NCBI RefSeq assembly: GCF_002854065.1
Contig: NZ_CP024147.1
DNA from: Escherichia coli
Lineage (GTDB): Bacteria; Pseudomonadota; Gammaproteobacteria; Enterobacterales; Enterobacteriaceae
Length of the DNA stretch: 64,000 bases
Strand: one strand, 5' to 3'
Both the position numbers and the translations under genes were made by a program. How positions within the stretch are numbered: the stretch's first letter is position 1; each line of letters opens with the position of its first letter. A model generated the notes under the pieces. The model searched no databases and was not told the DNA's origin. It was given only the letters and a program-made list of their open reading frames with translations. Shown in pieces: positions 2,436-64,000 of the stretch.

Positions 2436-3584
2436 ATGTCCACGTATACCCGGCCTGTCATGCTTTTGCTGTCTGGCCTGCTTTTGTTGACTCTGGCGAT
2501 CGCGGTGTTAAATACACTCGTGCCGCTTTGGCTCGCCCAGGAACACATGTCCACATGGCAGGTAGGCGTTGTCAGCTCATCCTATTTTACCGGCAACCTT
2601 GTCGGTACATTGCTGACAGGGTATGTCATTAAATGCATTGGCTTTAACCGCAGCTATTATCTGGCCTCCTTCATTTTTGCCGCTGGCTGTGCCGGCCTTG
2701 GCCTGATGATTGGTTTCTGGAGCTGGTTGGCGTGGCGTTTTGTCGCGGGCGTCGGCTGTGCCATGATTTGGGTAGTCGTTGAGAGCGCGCTGATGTGCAG
2801 TGGGACGTCACGTAACCGTGGGCGTTTGCTTGCTGCGTATATGATGGTTTATTACGTGGGAACGTTTTTAGGCCAGTTACTGGTCAGCAAAGTCTCAACC
2901 GAGCTGATGAGCGTATTGCCGTGGGTTACAGGTTTGACGTTGGCAGGGATCTTACCGCTGTTGTTTACGCGTGTCCTGAATCAGCAGGCTGAAAACCATG
3001 ATTCGACGTCAATTACGTCAATGCTAAAACTCCGTCAGGCGCGGCTTGGCGTGAATGGCTGCATTATCTCAGGAATCGTTCTGGGATCTCTATATGGCCT
3101 GATGCCGTTGTACCTCAATCACAAAGGGGTGAGCAATGCCAGCATTGGTTTCTGGATGGCGGTACTGGTCAGTGCGGGTATCCTCGGACAATGGCCGATT
3201 GGACGTCTGGCGGATAAGTTTGGTCGACTGCTGGTGTTGCGTGTTCAGGTCTTTGTCGTCATTCTCGGCAGTATCGCGATGCTTAGCCAGGCGGCGATGG
3301 CCCCAGCGTTATTCATCCTCGGTGCCGCTGGCTTTACGCTATATCCGGTGGCGATGGCCTGGGCTTGTGAGAAAGTTGAACATCATCAACTGGTGGCGAT
3401 GAACCAGGCCTTACTGTTGAGCTATACCGTGGGAAGTCTGCTTGGCCCGTCATTTACCGCTATGCTAATGCAGAATTTCTCCGATAATTTATTGTTTATC
3501 ATGATCGCCAGCGTATCGTTTATCTATTTGCTGATGCTGCTTCGCAACGCCGGTCATACGCCGAAACCCGTTGCTCACGTGTAA
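2436..3584 (+). CDS. ycaD: MFS transporter
   Basis: 382-aa multi-helix hydrophobic ORF, recognised as YcaD. Confidence 0.85.
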
Positions 3585-3793: not shown

Positions 3794-5224
3794 ATGGCTG
3801 GGAATGTTCAGGAAAAACAGCTGCGATGGTACAACATTGCGCTGATGTCTTTTATCACTGTCTGGGGTTTTGGCAACGTTGTTAATAACTATGCCAACCA
3901 GGGGCTGGTGGTTGTTTTTTCATGGGTGTTTATCTTTGCGCTCTATTTCACACCTTATGCGCTAATTGTTGGACAGTTAGGCTCGACCTTCAAAGATGGG
4001 AAGGGCGGGGTCAGTACCTGGATTAAACACACGATGGGACCCGGACTGGCTTACCTCGCCGCGTGGACCTACTGGGTGGTGCATATTCCCTATCTGGCAC
4101 AAAAACCCCAGGCAATACTGATTGCGCTCGGTTGGGCGATGAAAGGCGACGGTTCGCTAATCAAAGAATATTCAGTCGTAGCGTTACAGGGGTTAACGCT
4201 GGTGCTGTTTATCTTCTTTATGTGGGTTGCTTCACGCGGTATGAAATCGCTGAAAATCGTCGGTTCTGTGGCAGGGATTGCGATGTTTGTTATGTCGCTC
4301 CTGTATGTGGCGATGGCGGTAACCGCGCCTGCGATTACTGAAGTGCATATTGCGACCACAAACATTACCTGGGAAACGTTCATTCCTCATATCGACTTTA
4401 CCTACATTACCACTATTTCAATGCTGGTTTTCGCGGTTGGCGGAGCAGAGAAGATTTCTCCTTACGTTAATCAAACGCGCAACCCAGGAAAAGAATTTCC
4501 AAAAGGGATGCTATGCCTGGCGGTGATGGTTGCGGTTTGTGCCATTCTGGGCTCACTGGCGATGGGGATGATGTTTGACTCGCGTAATATCCCGGATGAC
4601 TTAATGACTAACGGTCAATATTACGCTTTTCAGAAGCTGGGCGAGTATTACAACATGGGTAATACTTTAATGGTGATTTACGCCATTGCGAATACCCTGG
4701 GACAAGTAGCTGCGCTGGTATTCTCGATTGATGCCCCGCTTAAAGTGCTATTAGGTGATGCTGACAGCAAATATATTCCAGCCAGTTTATGTCGTACCAA
4801 CGCTTCTGGTACGCCCGTTAATGGCTATTTTCTGACCCTGGTGCTGGTGGCAATTCTGATTATGCTGCCGACTCTCGGCATCGGTGATATGAACAATCTC
4901 TATAAATGGCTGTTGAATCTTAACTCGGTAGTGATGCCGCTGCGTTATTTATGGGTATTTGTTGCATTTATTGCAGTCGTTCGCCTGGCGCAGAAATATA
5001 AACCAGAATATGTCTTTATTCGTAATAAGCCTCTGGCAATGACCGTCGGGATTTGGTGTTTTGCCTTTACCGCCTTTGCCTGTTTGACGGGGATCTTCCC
5101 GAAAATGGAAGCCTTCACTGCAGAGTGGACCTTCCAGTTGGCGCTGAATGTTGCAACGCCGTTTGTGCTGGTAGGATTAGGACTGATATTCCCGCTGCTG
5201 GCGCGTAAAGCGAATAGTAAATAA
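3794..5224 (+). CDS. ycaM: APC-family amino acid transporter (putative)
   Basis: ORF track extends to 3602; internal ATG at 3794 (MAGNVQEKQLRWYNIALMSF) gives the 476-aa protein; multi-pass membrane protein. Confidence 0.8.
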   Translation: MAGNVQEKQLRWYNIALMSFITVWGFGNVVNNYANQGLVVVFSWVFIFALYFTPYALIVGQLGSTFKDGKGGVSTWIKHTMGPGLAYLAAWTYWVVHIPYLAQKPQAILIALGWAMKGDGSLIKEYSVVALQGLTLVLFIFFMWVASRGMKSLKIVGSVAGIAMFVMSLLYVAMAVTAPAITEVHIATTNITWETFIPHIDFTYITTISMLVFAVGGAEKISPYVNQTRNPGKEFPKGMLCLAVMVAVCAILGSLAMGMMFDSRNIPDDLMTNGQYYAFQKLGEYYNMGNTLMVIYAIANTLGQVAALVFSIDAPLKVLLGDADSKYIPASLCRTNASGTPVNGYFLTLVLVAILIMLPTLGIGDMNNLYKWLLNLNSVVMPLRYLWVFVAFIAVVRLAQKYKPEYVFIRNKPLAMTVGIWCFAFTAFACLTGIFPKMEAFTAEWTFQLALNVATPFVLVGLGLIFPLLARKANSK

Positions 5225-5391
5225 TTATTGTGGTCGGTGACGCTGACTCTGGCAGATCTGACCCGTTTTTACATAATCGAGAAATGCGCGCAAGCCGCAG
5301 GACATATACTGGCGGTTTGGGTAATACATTTGGAAGCTGTGCTGTAAGGGCGTTAGAAATAGAGCTCTGAATTATTTATGCAGCGCGGAAT

Positions 5392-5424
5392 AAAAAAGCG
5401 GCAACTCAATAAAGTTGCCGCTTT
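5392..5424 (-). terminator. intrinsic terminator after pflA (hairpin shared with convergent ycaM)
   Basis: GCGGCAACT-caataa-AGTTGCCGC flanked by an A6 run (T-run on minus strand). Confidence 0.7.
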
Positions 5425-5433
5425 ACGGGGAAA

Positions 5434-6174
5434 TTAGAACATTACCTTATGACCGTACTGCTCAAGAATGCCTTTCACGCGTTCCATGGTTTCTTTCTTC
5501 GGTGGTTTAACACCATCGAGTTTGTATTCTTCACCCATCGCCACCCATTTGTGTTTGCCCAGTTCGTGGTAGGGGAGAAGTTCGATTTTCTCAACGTTAC
5601 CCATATCACGGGTAAATTCACCGAGGCGATGCGCTGAATCGTCATCGTCAGACCAGCCTGGGACAACAACGTAGCGGATCCACACCTTCACATTTTTGTT
5701 CGCCAGATATTTAGCGAACTCCAGCGTGCGGTGGTTGGAAACTCCAACCAGATTTTGGTGGATCTCGTCGTTCATCTGTTTGAGATCGAGCATTACCAGG
5801 TCGGTTACTTCCAGCAGTTCATCAATCACCGGATCGTAACGACGAACAAAACCGTTGGTATCCAGACAGGTATGAATGCCTTCTTTTTTACAGGCGCGGA
5901 ACCAGTCACGAACAAACTCAGCTTGCAGGATTGCTTCACCGCCGGATGCGGTAACGCCGCCGCCGGAAGCGTTCATAAAGTGGCGATAGGTCACCACTTC
6001 CTTCATCAAATCTTCAACGGTAACTTCTTTACCGCCATGCGTGTCCCAGGTGTCGCGGTTATGACAATACAGGCAGCGCATCAGGCAGCCCTGGAAAAAG
6101 GTGATAAAGCGAATACCCGGGCCGTCTACGGTTCCACAGGATTCAAAGGAGTGAATGCGACCAATAACTGACAT
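5434..6174 (-). CDS. pflA: pyruvate formate-lyase activating enzyme (radical SAM)
   Basis: Start at [20 protein letters not shown]; CxxxCxxC radical-SAM motif ([10 protein letters not shown]); downstream of pflB on the same strand. Confidence 0.9.
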
Positions 6175-6295
6175 TGCGGTGTTTCTCCAGATGTGGCCCA
6201 TCTGAGGCCGTGTTGGTGCGCAGCTCGAAGGCTACGTCGAGTCTGTTTTGGCAGTCACCTTAAAGTATAGATAGCTGACAAAAAAGGCTCTCGTG

Positions 6296-19257: not shown

Positions 19258-19412
19258 ATTTCTCTAATCTGGAACTGGAAGCTGCCTCGCAGAGTTTTGA
19301 GCAGTTTTCACCCTCTCGTTAAATTCTTCTGAATGTGCCTCGGGGAACGCAAAATTCCCACCAGACAACCGCTCAACAAAGTTGCACACTTTCCATAAAC
19401 AGGGAGGGGTGC

Positions 19413-21663
19413 ATGAAAATAACGACAGTCGGCGTATGCATAATTTGCGGAATTTTTCCGTTGCTGATTTTGCCCCAATTGCCTGGGACATTAACCCTTG
19501 CGTCTCTGACCGTCTTCGCCTGCGTACTGGTATTTATCCCTTTTAAAACCGTCCGTTATATCGCGCTGACGTTGCTGTTTTTCGTTTGGGGCATATTAGC
19601 AGCAAAGCAAATTTTGTGGGCAGGAGAAACCTTAACTGGCGCGACGCAGGATGCAATTGTTGAGATCACTGCTACTGACGGTATGACCACTCATTACGGT
19701 CAAATTACTCATCTACAAGGTCGACGTATATTCCCTGCGCCAGGCCTCGTGCTGTATGGCGAATATCTTCCGCAAGCGGTTTGTGCTGGACAACAATGGT
19801 CAATGAAACTCAAAGTTCGTGCCGTTCATGGTCAACTTAATGATGGCGGCTTTGATAGCCAGCGTTATGCCATTGCCCAGCATCAGCCGCTCACCGGCCG
19901 TTTTCTGCGGGCAAGTGTCATTGAACCGAATTGTAGCCTGCGTGCACAGTATCTGGCGTCACTACAAACAACGCTGCAACCCTATATGTCTTGGTTTAGG
20001 TATGGGGGAACGGTTATCCGTCCCTAAAGAAATCAAAAATATCATGCGTGATACTGGAACGGCGCATTTAATGGCGATATCGGGATTGCACATCGCTTTT
20101 GCGGCGTTGCTGGCTGCCGGACTCATTCGCAGTGGACAAATTTTTCTGCCTGGGCGCTGGATCCACTGGCAAATGCCATTAATTGGCGGAATCTGCTGTG
20201 CTGCTTTTTATGCCTGGCTGACGGGAATGCAACCTCCTGCATTGCGTACCGTTGTGGCGCTTGCTACGTGGGGAATGCTTAAGTTAAGTGGGCGACAGTG
20301 GAGTGGCTGGGATGTATGGATATGTTGTCTGGCGGCAATTTTGCTGATGGATCCTGTTGCCATTCTCTCGCAAAGTTTATGGCTCTCTGCCGCTGCGGTC
20401 GCGGCATTGATATTTTGGTATCAGTGGTTTCCCTGTCCTGAGTGGCAACTGCCGCCGGTATTGCGTGCAGTTGTTTCCCTCATTCATTTGCAACTGGGAA
20501 TCACACTTCTGCTTATGCCCGTGCAAATCGTCATATTTCATGGCATTAGTCTGACCTCGTTTATTGCAAATCTATTAGCAATTCCCTTGGTGACATTTAT
20601 CACGGTTCCGTTGATCCTCGCCGCGATGGTTGTGCATTTAAGCGGGCCGTTAATCCTGGAGCAAGGGTTATGGTTTCTTGCCGACCGGTCTTTGGCTTTA
20701 CTTTTCTGGGGGTTAAAGAGTTTGCCAGAAGGGTGGATCAACATTGCTGAACGTTGGCAATGGCTATTATTTTCCCCATGGTTCTTACTGGTGGTATGGC
20801 GATTAAACGCCTGGCGAACGTTGCCAGCAATGTGTGTGGCTGTAGGCTTGCTGATGTGCTGGCCGCTGTGGCAAAAACCTCGACCTGACGAGTGGCAAGT
20901 GTACATGCTTGATGTCGGGCAAGGGCTGGCAATGGTGATAGCCAGAAACGGCAAAGCGATTCTCTATGACACGGGACTGGCCTGGCCCGAAGGGGATAGT
21001 GGGCAACAACTGATTATCCCCTGGCTCCACTGGCATAATCTTGAACCGGAAGGCGTTATTCTGAGCCATGAACATCTGGATCACCGGGGAGGGCTGGATT
21101 CAATATTGCACACATGGCCGATGTTATGGATCAGAAGTCCGTTAAACTGGGAACATCATCAGCCCTGTGTGCGTGGCGAAGCGTGGCAATGGCAAGGATT
21201 GCGTTTCAGTGCGCACTGGCCTTTACAAGGTAGCAACGATAAAGGAAATAACCATTCCTGTGTGGTTAAGGTTGATGACGGGACGAATAGCATTCTTCTA
21301 ACCGGTGATATTGAAGCCCCAGCTGAACAAAAGATGCTAAGCCGTTACTGGCAGCAAGTGCAGGCAACATTGCTTCAGGTACCTCACCATGGCAGTAATA
21401 CCTCATCATCGTTGCCATTAATTCAGCGAGTGAATGGAAAAGTGGCATTCGCATCGGCATCGCGCTATAACGCATGGCGACTGCCCTCTAACAAAGTTAA
21501 GCATCGCTATCAACAGCAAGGTTATACGTGGCTTGATACTCCTCATCAGGGGCAAGTAACGGTCGATTTTTCAGCGCAAGGCTGGCGGATTAGCAGCCTC
21601 AGGGAGCAAATTTTACCTCGTTGGTATCATCAGTGGTTTGGCGTGCCAGTGGATAACAGGTAG
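19413..21663 (+). pseudogene. ycaI: ComEC/Rec2-family inner membrane protein, apparently frameshifted
   Basis: N-terminal part in one frame (ATG 19413 to TAA 20025-20027), remainder in the +1 frame (open to 21663) carrying ...LGLGMGERLSVPKE...TGTAHLMAISGLH and the metallo-beta-lactamase motif HEHLDHRGG; the two frames overlap around 19990-20027. Confidence 0.6.
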
Positions 21664-25751: not shown

Positions 25752-26677
<926 letters not shown>

Positions 26678-26830
26678 TTTCACTTCACGACACTCCAGCC
26701 AATTTTGGGAGGAGTGTCGTACCGTTACGATTTTCCTCAATTTTTCTTTTCAACAATTGATCTCATTCAGGTGACATCTTTTATATTGGCGCTCATTATG
26801 AAAGCAGTAGCTTTTATGAGGGTAATCTGA

Positions 26831-27724
26831 ATGGAACAGCTGCGTGCCGAATTAAGCCATTTACTGGGCGAAAAACTCAGTCGTATTGAGTGCGTCAATG
26901 AAAAAGCGGATACGGCGTTGTGGGCTTTGTATGACAGCCAGGGAAACCCAATGCCGTTAATGGCAAGAAGCTTTAGTACGCCCGGAAAAGCCCGACAACT
27001 GGCATGGAAAACCACCATGCTGGCAAGAAGTGGGACTGTCCGTATGCCGACTATTTATGGTGTGATGACGTATGAAGAACACCCCGGCCCTGATGTCCTG
27101 CTACTGGAGCGGATGCGTGGTGTTTCGGTGGAGGCACCAGCCCGAACACCAGAACGCTGGGAACAGCTCAAAGACCAAATCGTTGAAGCCTTACTGGCCT
27201 GGCACCGTCAGGACAGTCGCGGTTGCGTCGGCGCGGTCGACAATACTCAGGAAAATTTCTGGCCCTCATGGTACCGGCAACATGTTGAAGTGCTATGGAC
27301 CACGCTCAATCAGTTCAATAACACCGGTCTGACGATGCAGGATAAGCGGATCCTGTTTCGCACTCGCGAATGTCTCCCGGCATTATTTGAAGGTTTTAAC
27401 GACAATTGTGTGCTGATTCACGGTAACTTCTGTTTACGCAGCATGCTGAAAGATTCGCGCAGCGATCAGTTACTGGCGATGGTCGGGCCGGGACTAATGC
27501 TTTGGGCACCGCGAGAATACGAACTGTTCCGACTAATGGATAATTCTCTGGCGGAAGATTTGCTCTGGAGTTACCTGCAACGCGCGCCAGTGGCGGAGTC
27601 GTTCATCTGGCGGCGTTGGTTGTATGTGTTATGGGATGAAGTCGCGCAACTGGTTAATACCGGACGATTTAGTCGGCGCAACTTCGATCTGGCATCAAAA
27701 TCACTCTTGCCGTGGCTCGCCTGA
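26831..27724 (+). CDS. ycbJ: putative phosphotransferase/kinase-like protein
   Basis: 297-aa ORF, recognised as YcbJ. Confidence 0.8.
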   Translation: MEQLRAELSHLLGEKLSRIECVNEKADTALWALYDSQGNPMPLMARSFSTPGKARQLAWKTTMLARSGTVRMPTIYGVMTYEEHPGPDVLLLERMRGVSVEAPARTPERWEQLKDQIVEALLAWHRQDSRGCVGAVDNTQENFWPSWYRQHVEVLWTTLNQFNNTGLTMQDKRILFRTRECLPALFEGFNDNCVLIHGNFCLRSMLKDSRSDQLLAMVGPGLMLWAPREYELFRLMDNSLAEDLLWSYLQRAPVAESFIWRRWLYVLWDEVAQLVNTGRFSRRNFDLASKSLLPWLA

Positions 27725-28480
27725 CGGACCTTTCAGCCACTGCCAGATGCGGCCAAGCGTTTCATAGCCAACACGATCGCTATGCATCAGCCAGACCGGA
27801 GAAGGGATTGCCCGTTCCCACGGATTAAGCGGCGAGTCGATGGCCAACTGATTCGCCGGGGCTGGTAGCGGATTTAACCCTTCCTGCTGAAAAAAGATCA
27901 TCGCCCGCGGCAGATGTGATGCGGAGGTCACCAGCAGGAAAGGGGCGTCACCAATCGCCTGTTTCACTGCCGCAGCTTCTTCTTCGGTATCTTTTGGCAA
28001 ATCCAGGGTGATAATTTGCTCGCGCGGTACGCCCAGCGATTGCGCAACTCTGGCACCTACTTCCGCTGTACTCACCGTATTGGTTTTTGCTACGCCTCCC
28101 GTGAAGATCAGTTTTGAACCCGGATTTTCGCGCCATAAACGGATACCCTCATTCAGGCGTGGCAGACTGTTATTGATTAAATTAGAGCTCGGTGCCCACT
28201 GCGGGTTCCAGGTATAACCACCTCCGAGCACCACGATATAGTCCACTTTTTGCGAATTATTCCATGTCGGATAGGTGCTTTCGATGGGACGCAGCAGGCG
28301 GTCGGCTACCGGTTGCAAACTCAATAACAAGAGTGCCAGCCACCCAATGCTAATAAAAATCTTCCCGGTTTTTTGAAAACGGCTAAACCACAGCAGCGCC
28401 AGGCCAGCGCCAATAATTAACAACATCAGCGGAAGTGGCAGCAACATATTGCCAATCACTTTTTTCAGTGTAAAAAGCAT
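27701..28480 (-). CDS. elyC: DUF218 envelope biogenesis factor
   Basis: 259-aa ORF with N-terminal transmembrane segment; convergent with ycbJ, 3' ends overlap by 24 nt. Confidence 0.8.
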   Translation of the reverse strand: MLFTLKKVIGNMLLPLPLMLLIIGAGLALLWFSRFQKTGKIFISIGWLALLLLSLQPVADRLLRPIESTYPTWNNSQKVDYIVVLGGGYTWNPQWAPSSNLINNSLPRLNEGIRLWRENPGSKLIFTGGVAKTNTVSTAEVGARVAQSLGVPREQIITLDLPKDTEEEAAAVKQAIGDAPFLLVTSASHLPRAMIFFQQEGLNPLPAPANQLAIDSPLNPWERAIPSPVWLMHSDRVGYETLGRIWQWLKGPSGEPRQE

Positions 28481-28615
28481 CCTTTCTGGTTCCTTTTTTA
28501 ACCATATAGCAAGGGATCGCCAGCGATATTACACCAGACGGGTTCATTCTCGCCGTGGCTGTGACAAAATAGCGTCTTTATCAGAAAACGTCTTAGCCAA
28601 CCGGTGGAGAAAGCA

Positions 28616-29401
28616 ATGCAGGATCGCAATTTTGATGATATTGCGGAAAAGTTTTCCCGTAACATTTACGGCACCACCAAAGGGCAGCTTCGACAGGCTA
28701 TTCTGTGGCAGGATCTCGATCGCGTGCTGGCGGAAATGGGTCCGCAAAAACTGCGTGTGCTGGATGCGGGCGGTGGAGAAGGGCAGACCGCAATCAAAAT
28801 GGCCGAGCGCGGGCATCAGGTCATTTTATGCGATCTTTCTGCGCAGATGATCGACCGCGCAAAACAGGCGGCAGAAGCAAAAGGTGTGAGCGACAACATG
28901 CAATTTATACATTGCGCCGCTCAGGATGTTGCTTCGCATTTGGAAACGCCCGTTGATCTGATATTGTTCCATGCGGTGCTCGAGTGGGTGGCTGATCCCC
29001 GCAGCGTATTGCAGACCCTGTGGTCAGTGTTGCGTCCAGGCGGCGTGTTGTCGTTAATGTTCTACAATGCGCATGGTTTGTTGATGCATAACATGGTCGC
29101 CGGGAATTTTGATTACGTGCAGGCGGGAATGCCGAAAAAGAAAAAACGGACGCTTTCGCCAGATTATCCACGCGACCCGGCGCAGGTTTATCTGTGGCTG
29201 GAAGAAGCTGGTTGGCAAATTATGGGTAAGACAGGCGTTCGCGTGTTTCATGATTATCTGCGCGAGAAGCACCAGCAGCGCGACTGCTATGAAGCATTAC
29301 TTGAATTAGAAACGCGTTATTGCCGTCAGGAACCGTATATTACCCTGGGGCGTTATATTCATGTCACCGCGCGCAAACGGCAGAGCAAGGATAAAGTATG
29401 A
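28616..29401 (+). CDS. cmoM: SAM-dependent tRNA methyltransferase
   Basis: Start at [17 protein letters not shown]-binding motif VLDAGGGEG; stop overlaps the mukF start. Confidence 0.8.
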
Positions 29402-39376: not shown

Positions 39377-39384
39377 AGGCGCAT

Positions 39385-39420
39385 AAAAAAGCCCGCTTTT
39401 CAGCGGGCTTCATTGTTTTT
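39385..39420. terminator. bidirectional terminator between gloC and aspC
   Basis: AAAAAAGCCCGC-ttttca-GCGGGCTT flanked by A-run and T-run. Confidence 0.65.
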
Positions 39421-39425
39421 AACGC

Positions 39426-54587: not shown

Positions 54588-54629
54588 TAGACTGGCCCCC
54601 TGAATCTCCAGACAACCAATATCACTTAA
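54588..54629. repeat. IS2 terminal inverted repeat (transposase-proximal end)
   Basis: Imperfect match to the reverse complement of 55877-55918, sharing TCCAGACA and ATCACTTAA blocks. Confidence 0.6.
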
Positions 54630-54678
54630 ATAAGTGATAGTCTTAATACTAGTTTTTAGACTAGTCATTGGAGAACAG

Positions 54679-55044
54679 ATGATTGATGTCTTAGGGCCGG
54701 AGAAACGCAGACGGCGTACCACACAGGAAAAGATCGCAATTGTTCAGCAGAGCTTTGAACCGGGGATGACGGTCTCCCTCGTTGCCCGGCAACATGGTGT
54801 AGCAGCCAGCCAGTTATTTCTCTGGCGTAAGCAATACCAGGAAGGAAGTCTTACTGCTGTCGCCGCCGGAGAACAGGTTGTTCCTGCCTCTGAACTTGCT
54901 GCCGCCATGAAGCAGATTAAAGAACTCCAGCGCCTGCTCGGCAAGAAAACGATGGAAAATGAACTCCTCAAAGAAGCCGTTGAATATGGACGGGCAAAAA
55001 AGTGGATAGCGCACGCGCCCTTATTGCCCGGGGATGGGGAGTAA
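54679..55044 (+). CDS. insC: IS2 OrfA / InsC (HTH DNA-binding)
   Basis: 121 aa [56 protein letters not shown]... Confidence 0.9.
54996..55002 (+). promoter_or_regulatory. A6G slippery heptamer (programmed -1 frameshift site of IS3-family transposase)
   Basis: AAAAAAG at the insC/insD overlap, where the insD frame opens. Confidence 0.6.
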
Positions 55045-55907
55045 GCTTAGTCAGCCGTTGTCTCCGGGTGTCGCGTGCGCAGTTGCACGTCATTCTCAGA
55101 CGAACCGATGACTGGATGGATGGCCGCCGCAGTCGTCACACTGATGATACGGATGTGCTTCTCCGTATACACCATGTTATCGGAGAGCTGCCCACGTATG
55201 GTTATCGTCGGGTATGGGCGCTGCTTCGCAGACAGGCAGAACTTGATGGTATGCCTGCGATCAATGCCAAACGTGTTTACCGGATCATGCGCCAGAATGC
55301 GCTGTTGCTTGAGCGAAAACCTGCTGTACCGCCATCGAAACGGGCACATACAGGCAGAGTGGCCGTGAAAGAAAGCAATCAGCGATGGTGCTCTGACGGG
55401 TTCGAGTTCTGCTGTGATAACGGAGAGAGACTGCGTGTCACGTTCGCGCTGGACTGCTGTGATCGTGAGGCACTGCACTGGGCGGTCACTACCGGCGGCT
55501 TCAACAGTGAAACAGTACAGGACGTCATGCTGGGAGCGGTGGAACGCCGCTTCGGCAACGATCTTCCGTCGTCTCCAGTGGAGTGGCTGACGGATAATGG
55601 TTCATGCTACCGGGCTAATGAAACACGCCAGTTCGCCCGGATGTTGGGACTTGAACCGAAGAACACGGCGGTGCGGAGTCCGGAGAGTAACGGAATAGCA
55701 GAGAGCTTCGTGAAAACGATAAAGCGTGACTACATCAGTATCATGCCCAAACCAGACGGGTTAACGGCAGCAAAGAACCTTGCAGAGGCGTTCGAGCATT
55801 ATAACGAATGGCATCCGCATAGTGCGCTGGGTTATCGCTCGCCACGGGAATATCTGCGGCAGCGGGCTTGTAATGGGTTAAGTGATAACAGATGTCTGGA
55901 AATATAG
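55002..55907 (+). CDS. insD: IS2 OrfB / InsD (DDE transposase catalytic domain)
   Basis: 301-aa ORF in the -1 frame relative to insC ([34 protein letters not shown]...). Confidence 0.9.
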
Positions 55908-55918
55908 GGGCAAATCCA
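55877..55918. repeat. IS2 terminal inverted repeat (distal end)
   Basis: Reverse complement matches 54588-54629 imperfectly. Confidence 0.6.
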
Positions 55919-59120
<3,202 letters not shown>

Positions 59121-61010: not shown

Positions 61011-62021
61011 ATGTACTACCCCTTCGTTCGTAAAGCCCTTTTCCAGCTCGATCCAGAGCGCGCTCATGAGTTTACTTTTCAGCAATTACGCCGCATTACC
61101 GGAACACCGTTTGAAGCACTGGTGCGGCAGAAAGTGCCTGCAAAACCTGTTAACTGCATGGGCCTGACGTTTAAAAATCCGCTTGGTCTGGCAGCCGGTC
61201 TTGACAAAGACGGGGAGTGCATTGATGCGTTAGGCGCGATGGGATTTGGATCGATCGAGATCGGTACCGTCACGCCACGTCCACAGCCAGGTAATGACAA
61301 GCCGCGTCTCTTTCGTCTGGTAGATGCCGAAGGTTTGATCAACCGTATGGGCTTTAATAATCTTGGCGTTGATAATCTCGTAGAGAACGTAAAAAAGGCC
61401 CATTATGACGGCGTCCTGGGTATTAACATCGGCAAAAATAAAGATACGCCAGTGGAGCATGGCAAAGATGACTATCTGATTTGTATGGAAAAAATCTATG
61501 CCTATGCGGGATATATCGCCATCAATATTTCATCGCCGAATACCCCAGGATTACGCACACTGCAATATGGTGAAGCGCTGGATGATCTCTTAACTGCGAT
61601 TAAAAATAAGCAAAATGATTTGCAAGCGATGCACCATAAATATGTGCCGATCGCAGTGAAGATCGCGCCGGATCTTTCTGAAGAAGAATTGATCCAGGTT
61701 GCCGATAGTTTAGTTCGCCATAATATTGATGGCGTTATTGCAACCAATACCACACTCGATCGTTCTCTGGTTCAGGGAATGAAAAATTGCGATCAAACCG
61801 GTGGCTTAAGTGGTCGTCCGCTTCAGTTAAAAAGCACCGAAATTATTCGCCGCTTGTCACTGGAATTAAACGGTCGCTTACCGATCATCGGTGTTGGCGG
61901 CATCGACTCGGTTATCGCTGCGCGTGAAAAGATTGCTGCGGGTGCCTCACTGGTGCAAATTTATTCTGGTTTTATTTTTAAAGGTCCGCCGCTGATTAAA
62001 GAAATCGTTACCCATATCTAA
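61011..62021 (+). CDS. pyrD: dihydroorotate dehydrogenase (quinone)
   Basis: Start [21 protein letters not shown] (336 aa). Confidence 0.9.
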
Positions 62022-62053
62022 TTATTTCTTCGAATTCCTCTTTATAAGATAAT

Positions 62054-62085
62054 CAGGGCTTTATTTTCAGCCCTGGTTGTTTTAT
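62054..62085 (+). terminator. intrinsic terminator after pyrD
   Basis: CAGGGCT-ttattttc-AGCCCTG followed by a T-rich tract. Confidence 0.55.
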
Positions 62086-62194
62086 ATTCATCGCTGTTGC
62101 TTATTTAGACATTTTGTACTTTTATTGTTGAGGTTATTAAGCGAAGCGACAATGGATTGTGTTGCTGCGGTTTTATAGGGTAGGGGAGAGGCAG

Positions 62195-62737
62195 ATGCGA
62201 ATTAAACCAGACGATAACTGGCGTTGGTATTACGATGAAGAGCACGATCGTATGATGCTCGATTTAGCCAATGGTATGCTATTTCGCTCACGTTTTGCGC
62301 GCAAGATGTTGACTCCAGATGCCTTTTCTCCCGCAGGCTTTTGCGTTGACGACGCCGCGCTCTATTTCTCTTTTGAAGAAAAGTGCCGCGATTTTAATTT
62401 ATCTAAAGAACAAAAAGCCGAACTGGTGCTGAATGCACTGGTAGCAATTCGCTATCTCAAACCGCAAATGCCGAAAAGCTGGCATTTTGTTTCCCATGGT
62501 GAAATGTGGGTGCCCATGCCGGGGGATGCGGCCTGCGTTTGGTTGAGCGACACTCACGAGCAAGTCAATTTGCTGGTCGTTGAATCTGGCGAGAATGCCG
62601 CGCTATGTCTGCTAGCCCAACCCTGCGTTGTTATTGCGGGTCGCGCGATGCAGTTGGGCGACGCCATTAAAATCATGAACGACAGGCTGAAACCGCAGGT
62701 TAATGTTGACAGCTTCAGCCTCGAACAGGCAGTCTAA
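62195..62737 (+). CDS. zapC: cell division protein ZapC
   Basis: Start [34 protein letters not shown] (180 aa). Confidence 0.8.
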
Positions 62738-63843
62738 CGCGCCAACTTAAGTGCAGTCTTCGGTACACAGCTACAGCAAAGAATGGTGCCATCATCGCCC
62801 ATTGCTGATTTTTTCAGCGGCGTGACTTCGCCTTCTAAAAGCTGAACACGGCAACTTCCACAAATGCCCGCGCGGCAAGAATAAGGGATACGAATTCCCT
62901 GATTTTCTAATTGCTCCAGCAACACTTGTTGGTTATTTCCACGAAATGCCTGTCCCTGCCAGTCAATATCTACATTTGCGTCCGGTTGTTGCGTGATGTT
63001 GGCGGTATCATCAGCGGCAGCTGCGCCGTAAATTTTTGCCGGAGCCGTTGCCAGAATTTCCACCTCATCGCCAACGCGAATCACGCCGCTATTACGGGCA
63101 ATTAAATTCTGACCAAAATCGACATCGCCGTTATCCTGGGCAGTGCGGAAAGATTGCAATGTTTTTAATGGTTCGCCTGCCGGATGTTTTTGCCCTTTTT
63201 CTGGGCTGACGGTGGTGAAAATACAGCGGCTACAAGGTTTAACCACATCAAACACCACATCACCAATGCGAATCACTTTCCAGCGATCTTCTTCCCAGGC
63301 TGACGCGCCGGAAACCACCAGATTGGGGCGGAATTGCTCCATTTTTACACTGGCCGGACAACGTTGTTGGAGATCACGTAACGAGGCTTCGTTAGCAAGA
63401 AGGTAAGGATAGCCATCAGCAAATGACAGAGGTACAGTGTTGTGGCGTTTCACGCGCCGGGTCATTTGTGGCCCCACCCAGCGTAATTGCACTTCGCGGG
63501 AGAAAAATCCACTTAGCCATTTGTTGATCGCGTCTGGCGCAATTCGCGCGGTAAAATGTGTGCCCCAAACTTCGGTTGGTGCGTCTTGTGTGGCGAAATC
63601 AGCAAAACGAACATATGCGCTACTGCCATCTGGTGCGGTGAGATGCAAGCCATCATGCACAGGTGAAGGAGTAAACCGTACCATCTGGGGAAACTGGCGA
63701 GCGGTAATAAACGTACCATCAGGTTCCGTGATCATAAAGATGCGATCGAAGGCCAGACCACTGACATCTGCCAGGGTATGTGTAAGACCAATGCCGCGCA
63801 TCGATTTAACAGGATGAATAAAAAGCCGGGTTAATGTCGCCAC
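62734..63843 (-). CDS. ycbX: MOSC-domain 2Fe-2S protein
   Basis: 369-aa ORF with C-terminal ferredoxin-type Cys motif ([11 protein letters not shown]); 3' end overlaps the zapC stop. Confidence 0.85.
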
Positions 63844-64000
63844 GGTGTGGTCCTCAAATGAAAATAAGCCCTCAACTTTATGACATGACGCGCTTATTAG
63901 CTATAATGCGCAACAATTTTCTTAGCGCCTGTCCCATTAGGCTATTTTATTTGTCAGTTTGGCCCTGGGTTGTGCTCGAAATCCTCACGTACTTGTGTAC

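Follow-up and report, generated by a model that had tools for sequence, protein, structure and literature searches.

Convergent gene pairs ycbJ/elyC and zapC/ycbX of Escherichia coli overlap at their 3' ends and have antisense transcription into the partner gene

When two genes face each other tail to tail and leave no space between their stop codons, it must be asked where transcription of each of them ends, how such an arrangement is kept in evolution and whether it serves any regulatory purpose. Two junctions of this kind are present in a 64-kb stretch of the E. coli chromosome (hereafter the window, which refers to the whole stretch of 64,000 nucleotides). Here, we have combined open reading frame (ORF) analysis, comparison of related genomes, RNA structure prediction and published transcript data to examine both of them.

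The first pair consists of ycbJ (26831..27724, plus strand), which encodes a YcbJ family phosphotransferase of 297 aa, and elyC (27701..28480, minus strand), which encodes the envelope biogenesis factor ElyC of 259 aa; the ORF list and the RefSeq annotation agree on both genes. According to both the ORF list and direct reading of the sequence, ycbJ ends with TGA at 27722-27724, and elyC ends with TGA on the complement of 27701-27703. The tail-to-tail overlap of the coding sequences thus covers 24 nt on both strands (27701-27724), exactly as the initial annotation had described it. Within this segment, the plus strand encodes the YcbJ end ...SLLPWLA and the minus strand the ElyC end ...SGEPRQE, each followed by the stop; codon boundaries coincide on the two strands. 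Both products were covered over their full length by NCBIfam equivalog models (NF007890, YcbJ residues 1-297 of 297, E = 4e-171; NF007794, ElyC residues 1-259 of 259, E = 3e-154). The same overlap is found in the RefSeq annotation of K-12 MG1655 (ycbJ 971752..972645, elyC 972622..973401; overlap 972622-972645). In addition, the region 26700-28700 was 100% identical to the chromosome of E. coli strain CUWW06 and was matched in 5,425 of 5,426 complete E. coli genomes.

The second pair consists of zapC (62195..62737, plus strand; 180 aa from the RefSeq ATG start, with the mechanical ORF beginning further upstream at a GTG at 62159) and ycbX (62734..63843, minus strand; 369 aa), which encodes a MOSC and 2Fe-2S protein. 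The stop codons are TAA at 62735-62737 for zapC and TAG for ycbX, the latter read from the complement of cta at 62734-62736. The coding sequences share the tetranucleotide CTAA (62734-62737, both strands), which contains both stop codons, 2 nt of which (62735-62736) are common to the two. An overlap lying within the stops had been reported before, and the ORF list and direct reading gave the same positions. ZapC homologs carry the Pfam domains PF21083 and PF07126, and YcbX orthologs carry MOSC_N, MOSC and Fer2. The K-12 MG1655 RefSeq coordinates are 1005952..1006494 for zapC and 1006491..1007600 for ycbX, with the overlap at 1006491-1006494. All four gene names, which had been assigned from the sequence, were supported by the E. 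coli identity of the window and by the K-12 annotation.

Six convergent junctions were identified in the window, with gaps of 35, 209, -24, 49, 42 and -4 nt. On the basis of the 58 convergent overlaps counted in E. coli (Lillo and Krakauer, 2007; PMC2174442), we calculated that approximately 0.8 would be expected per 64 kb and that the probability of finding two or more is approximately 0.19. Since nearly one such overlap is expected by this arithmetic, two in one window are unremarkable. Both pairs belong to the class of convergent overlapping genes, as they lie on opposite strands and have 3' nucleotides in common (24 and 4 nt), and both members of each pair are real, conserved genes whose ends are kept in 77 of 80 genomes (ycbJ/elyC) or in 11 of 12 genera (zapC/ycbX). 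The tetramers that can hold two opposed stops are CTAA, TTAA, CTAG and TTAG (PMC2174442), and zapC/ycbX, with CTAA at 62734-62737, is a member of this 4-nt stop-stop class, which has also been described among the convergent overlaps of prokaryotes by Pallejà et al. (2009; PMC2716372). In comparison with the overlaps in these two studies, the likeness extends to the opposite strands and overlapping 3' ends of both pairs, the CTAA of zapC/ycbX, and the short overlap and codon-aligned phase of ycbJ/elyC. No material difference could be observed; the 24 nt of ycbJ/elyC exceed the 4-nt class, yet are well inside the usual range. Thus, both overlaps are real and ordinary, and they are already known: they have been annotated and published, their class has been described since the 2000s and a publication of 2025 covers the overlapping transcripts of both pairs.

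To characterize the conservation of the ycbJ/elyC overlap, ElyC was searched in species-representative genomes, which yielded 80 Enterobacteriaceae loci (73-97% identity), and ycbJ and elyC were extended to their stops at each of them. The overlap was 24 nt long in 70 of the 80 loci and 21 nt long in 7 more (77 in total). The remaining three loci, all from Citrobacter (Citrobacter youngae ATCC 29220, C. werkmanii and Citrobacter sp. wls619), had a gap of 58-117 nt, and in each of these species a REP-like palindromic element (GCCTGATGGCGAC...GTCTTATCAGGCCTAC) was located exactly at the ycbJ stop (positions 3266-3358, 3266-3323 and 3266-3382 of loci L013, L019 and L029, respectively). At these loci the YcbJ tail KSLLPWLA with its stop was retained, and ElyC ended early with a new tail, KG-x-EH, directly before the stop. 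The existence of these split loci indicates that the overlap can be lost. We also measured per-site entropy in 78 sequences (the 77 overlapping loci plus the window, leaving out the three split Citrobacter loci), which was 0.38 in the overlap versus 0.70 and 0.69 in the flanks. In the same 78 sequences the YcbJ tail KSLLPWLA and its stop were almost invariant, and the ElyC tail (SGEPGQE) was variable. From these sequence comparisons we infer that the overlap is frozen, chiefly through constraint on the C-terminus of YcbJ, and that ElyC can probably do without its final residues. As for zapC/ycbX, the 4-nt overlap was found in the contexts of ZapC orthologs in 11 of 12 other genera, Siccibacter having a 4-nt gap between the two genes. 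The stop tetramer in other genera was mostly TTAA, with TTAG in Enterobacter and Atlantibacter. Judging from this distribution, both overlaps are old. It should be noted that such strong conservation could equally reflect selection on the arrangement itself, which is inseparable here from coding constraint.

The initial annotation had further held that transcription of each gene must run into its partner. Where coding sequences overlap, nothing separates the two genes, and any mRNA that contains one of them in full is necessarily antisense to the end of the other; the published data agree with this expectation. Both ycbJ-elyC and zapC-ycbX are among the 165 convergent transcript overlaps that were identified in MG1655 by ExcludonFinder (Sanmartin et al., NAR 2025, PMC12288877, Table 1), where a pair had to overlap in half or more of 58 RNA-seq samples from this strain. 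For zapC, Term-seq (Adams, 2021; PMC7815308, supplementary file 1) revealed a plus-strand 3' end at K-12 position 1006586. By matching the published 61-nt flanking sequence to window positions 62779-62839, this end could be placed at 62829, which is inside ycbX in antisense orientation and 92 nt beyond the stop of zapC; on the zapC strand, the end of a predicted helix (z = -2.0) precedes it by 5 nt. Bicyclomycin-sensitive, that is, Rho-dependent, termination regions were reported on both strands of this junction (PMC7815308, supplementary file 2). The plus-strand region (centred at K-12 1006647, window 62890; Rho score 7.24, p = 1e-24) is antisense to ycbX, and the minus-strand region (centred at K-12 1006040, window 62283; Rho score 4.34, p = 7e-8) is antisense to zapC, approximately 450 nt past the ycbX stop and across most of zapC. 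Near ycbJ/elyC, the same file contains one plus-strand region (K-12 972120, window 27199; score 5.47, p = 5e-12), whose centre lies inside ycbJ, 525 nt upstream of the ycbJ stop, and whose downstream 800-nt window spans the overlap. These positions are coarse, since the scores use 800-nt windows. That region, upstream of the overlap, was the sole one near this pair, and the tables of PMC7815308 contained none on the elyC strand. They also contained no 3' end at the ycbJ/elyC junction (K-12 9725xx-9728xx) and no minus-strand 3' end just past the ycbX stop (K-12 10064xx). Overall, read-in at zapC/ycbX is shown by published data, and the support for read-in at ycbJ/elyC consists of RNA-seq coverage.

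It had also been stated that neither pair has an intergenic terminator. This is right insofar as there is no intergenic space and no canonical site: a consensus scan of both junctions detected no canonical hairpin followed by a T-run in the approximately 100 nt that follow each of the four stops, and a bidirectional intrinsic terminator, with a GC-rich hairpin between an A-tract and a U-tract, finds no room between the stops at either junction. As a general statement it was too strong, because termination signals sit within the coding sequence of the partner, namely the Rho-dependent regions and a partly conserved stem-loop at 62685-62720. A composition scan revealed C-rich, G-poor windows (C/G 1.4-2.9) after all four stops, which are weak evidence for Rho loading as antisense coding sequence is often C-rich. 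Past the elyC stop, an elyC-sense stretch of this type (27583..27687, minus strand; C/G 1.65-1.92 in 78-nt windows) might by its composition be a candidate Rho loading region. In E. coli, the elyC-sense RNA past the stop (27560-27703, minus strand) was predicted to fold with -44.6 kcal/mol (z = -3.72) into two hairpins inside ycbJ. RNAalifold found no consensus structure downstream of elyC in 81 Enterobacteriaceae sequences, and a conserved terminator of elyC embedded in ycbJ was dropped as a candidate. In the region 61900-64000, 12 terminator-like motifs of the weak hairpin-plus-T type were identified versus 2.8 +/- 1.6 in shuffled sequences, for example, at 62884-62900 (palindromic, both strands), 62916-62932 and 63324-63341; the majority fell within ycbX, in the zapC-sense direction. 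The published Rho region has its centre (62890) at the palindromic site, 62884-62900. A further terminator-like hairpin on the plus strand was observed at 26652-26675, shortly before ycbJ, where it falls within the final codons of kdsB. Its 8-bp stem precedes AATTTCACTT, and it could account for the decrease of plus-strand reads across ycbJ in the published bicyclomycin data.

The stem-loop at 62685-62720 belongs to the ycbX-sense RNA (minus strand), where it begins 14 nt beyond the stop of ycbX; on the opposite strand, the same segment falls within the final 17 or so codons of zapC. In E. coli, this RNA was predicted to form a 13-bp stem without a U-tract. Across 13 genera, pairing was retained in 80% of cells versus 73% in shuffles (1/500), and the covariation score was 0.242 versus 0.144 in shuffles (1/500), both statistics being subject to the caveats of the tool on related sequences. 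In 12 of the 13 sequences the minus strand folded more stably than the plus strand, because of G-U pairs, and the z values of its fold were -2 to -5.6 in 12 of the 13. Some of the paired changes leave the ZapC protein unaltered, such as AGG/AGC in E. coli versus AGA/AGT in Klebsiella. Addition of three genera weakened the RNAalifold consensus from -6.5 to -1.4 kcal/mol, and for this reason we regard the structure as suggestive only. It is a candidate 3' protective structure or weak terminator of the ycbX mRNA. That the last approximately 17 zapC codons double as a structured RNA element with such a function, protective hairpin or weak terminator, is a tentative idea that we consider rather doubtful. 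If it were true, selection on the zapC coding sequence would favor an RNA structure that serves ycbX, the gene on the other strand. The overlaps themselves hold no new biology, and this strand-biased stem-loop inside zapC is possibly the sole new item.

Several features of the two junctions resemble known systems. Dar and Sorek (2018; PMC6061677) reported that Rho-terminated RNAs are trimmed back to stem-loops without U-tracts. The bicyclomycin-sensitive read-through on both zapC/ycbX strands is similar to this. The zapC-strand 3' end just beyond a predicted structure without a U-tract and the stable ycbX-strand stem-loop past the stop, also without a U-tract, may be comparable, the latter being a predicted fold with no mapped 3' end. 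Here, however, the stem-loops are not part of a free 3' UTR but fall within the coding sequence of the partner. The bidirectional intrinsic terminators of Wang et al. (2022; bioRxiv 10.1101/2022.10.23.513370), who proposed that head-on polymerase collision aids termination at convergent pairs, share with our pairs the convergence, and a stem-loop at the boundary could position colliding polymerases; both pairs, however, lack an intergenic hairpin flanked by A- and U-tracts. Unlike either of them, pepN/ssuB in the same window has a classical bidirectional terminator with a Term-seq 3' end at K-12 993275. Convergent excludons (PMC12288877) are similar in that both pairs are named there as convergent transcript overlaps. 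They are defined by mutually exclusive expression via RNase III or interference, whereas these two pairs are known by transcript overlap, and here not just UTRs but also the coding sequences overlap.

Taken together, we consider it very probable that these are ordinary, old overlaps of unrelated housekeeping genes, constrained by coding, whose antisense read-in is ended mainly by Rho inside the partner. Each overlap would have arisen because the stop of each gene lies within the last codons of its partner, and double coding constraint, rather than selection for regulation, would then keep it in place. With no spacer, RNA polymerase leaving either gene would enter the partner in antisense. Rho would be the main factor that terminates this untranslated antisense RNA, at a distance of tens to hundreds of nucleotides into the partner gene, and this would presumably apply to the read-in from ycbJ and elyC too. 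Exonucleases would probably trim the RNA back to stem-loops in the partner coding sequence and so set the steady-state 3' ends. As a consequence, both mRNAs of a pair carry complementary 3' tails, which is the 'convergent excludon' of the literature.

Other explanations have to be weighed against this one. If the overlaps were functional excludons, the arrangement itself would be selected, and pairing of the 3' tails (with RNase III) or collision of polymerases would make the expression of the partners mutually exclusive. The presence of both pairs in at least half of the RNA-seq samples (PMC12288877), the conservation of the overlaps across the family and the proposed help of polymerase collision in termination at convergent pairs are in favor of such a role. 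However, the published listing reflects coverage overlap, not reciprocal expression of these pairs, and the need to encode the YcbJ tail, together with the stop tetramer, accounts for the conservation. Moreover, the 58-117-nt REP split is tolerated in three Citrobacter species and a 4-nt gap at zapC/ycbX in Siccibacter, and no functional link between the partners is known. We therefore regard selection for mutually exclusive expression, and with it a regulatory excludon role for these pairs, as improbable, and the data do not require it.

Another way in which transcription could end is that hairpins embedded in the partner coding sequence stop the polymerase without Rho, in which case read-in would be short and precise. 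The partly conserved stem-loop 14 nt past the ycbX stop, which is followed by a U-containing run (UGUCGUUCAUGAUUUUA), and the motif enrichment in 61900-64000, including the palindromic 62884-62900, are consistent with this, and intrinsic terminators have been predicted for approximately 20% of the genes in E. coli convergent overlaps (PMC2174442). Against it, no hairpin near the junctions is followed by a proper U-tract, Term-seq detected neither a minus-strand end at K-12 10064xx nor any end at 9725xx-9728xx, bicyclomycin raised read-through on both zapC/ycbX strands and the 81 sequences downstream of elyC yielded no RNAalifold consensus. Embedded intrinsic terminators acting without Rho thus appear quite unlikely. 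The chance that each pair contains one gene with a misplaced end, or one that is no true gene, is negligible. Long overlaps are described in general terms as often being mispredictions (PMC2478687), but a 3' end is set by the stop codon and not by the gene caller, and across genera the four ORFs all keep their full length and their ends. An annotation artefact was rejected, given that the equivalog matches of YcbJ and ElyC extend to the final residue and that the ends are kept in relatives. Termination mainly by Rho inside the partner of an ordinary, coding-constrained overlap is thus the reading that we retain.

With regard to experimental work, any deletion or tag placed at the 3' end of ycbJ or zapC changes elyC or ycbX, respectively, as well. 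According to a 2025 preprint, deletion of ycbJ inactivates elyC, and phenotypes assigned to one gene may therefore belong to its partner. Both loci are also usable examples of termination without intergenic space, by Rho inside the partner and possibly with the help of embedded stem-loops.

Some other features of the window were observed. The gene for the fimbrial usher, elfC, is disrupted by a copy of IS2 (54590-55920) with inverted repeats at 54597-54629 and 55878-55910, and the ORF 55002..55907 (plus strand, 301 aa) matched the IS2 transposase TnpB (NF006918, E = 1e-219). The interval from elfD to elfG is 1336 bp longer in the window than in K-12, which we take to be IS2 (1331 bp) plus a 5-bp target duplication. 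The convergent spacer between gloC and aspC (39377-39425) has 49 nt versus 221 nt in K-12, being 172 nt shorter; the K-12 spacer presumably carries a REP/BIME element. Two K-12 genes located between ycaM and pflA, ycaN and ycaK, are absent here (site 5225-5433), and ycaM (plus strand, ending at 5224) converges directly on pflA (5434..6201, minus strand) with a 209-nt gap. In K-12, ycaM and ycaN abut with a 0-nt gap and are also in the excludon list (PMC12288877); as ycaN and ycaK are missing, the ycaM/ycaN pair does not exist in this strain. Finally, ycaI, a single gene of 754 aa in K-12, appeared here as two separate ORFs, 19335..20027 and 19819..21663, which overlap and are read in different frames, and the region 19335-21663 possibly represents a frameshift or a pseudogene in this strain.
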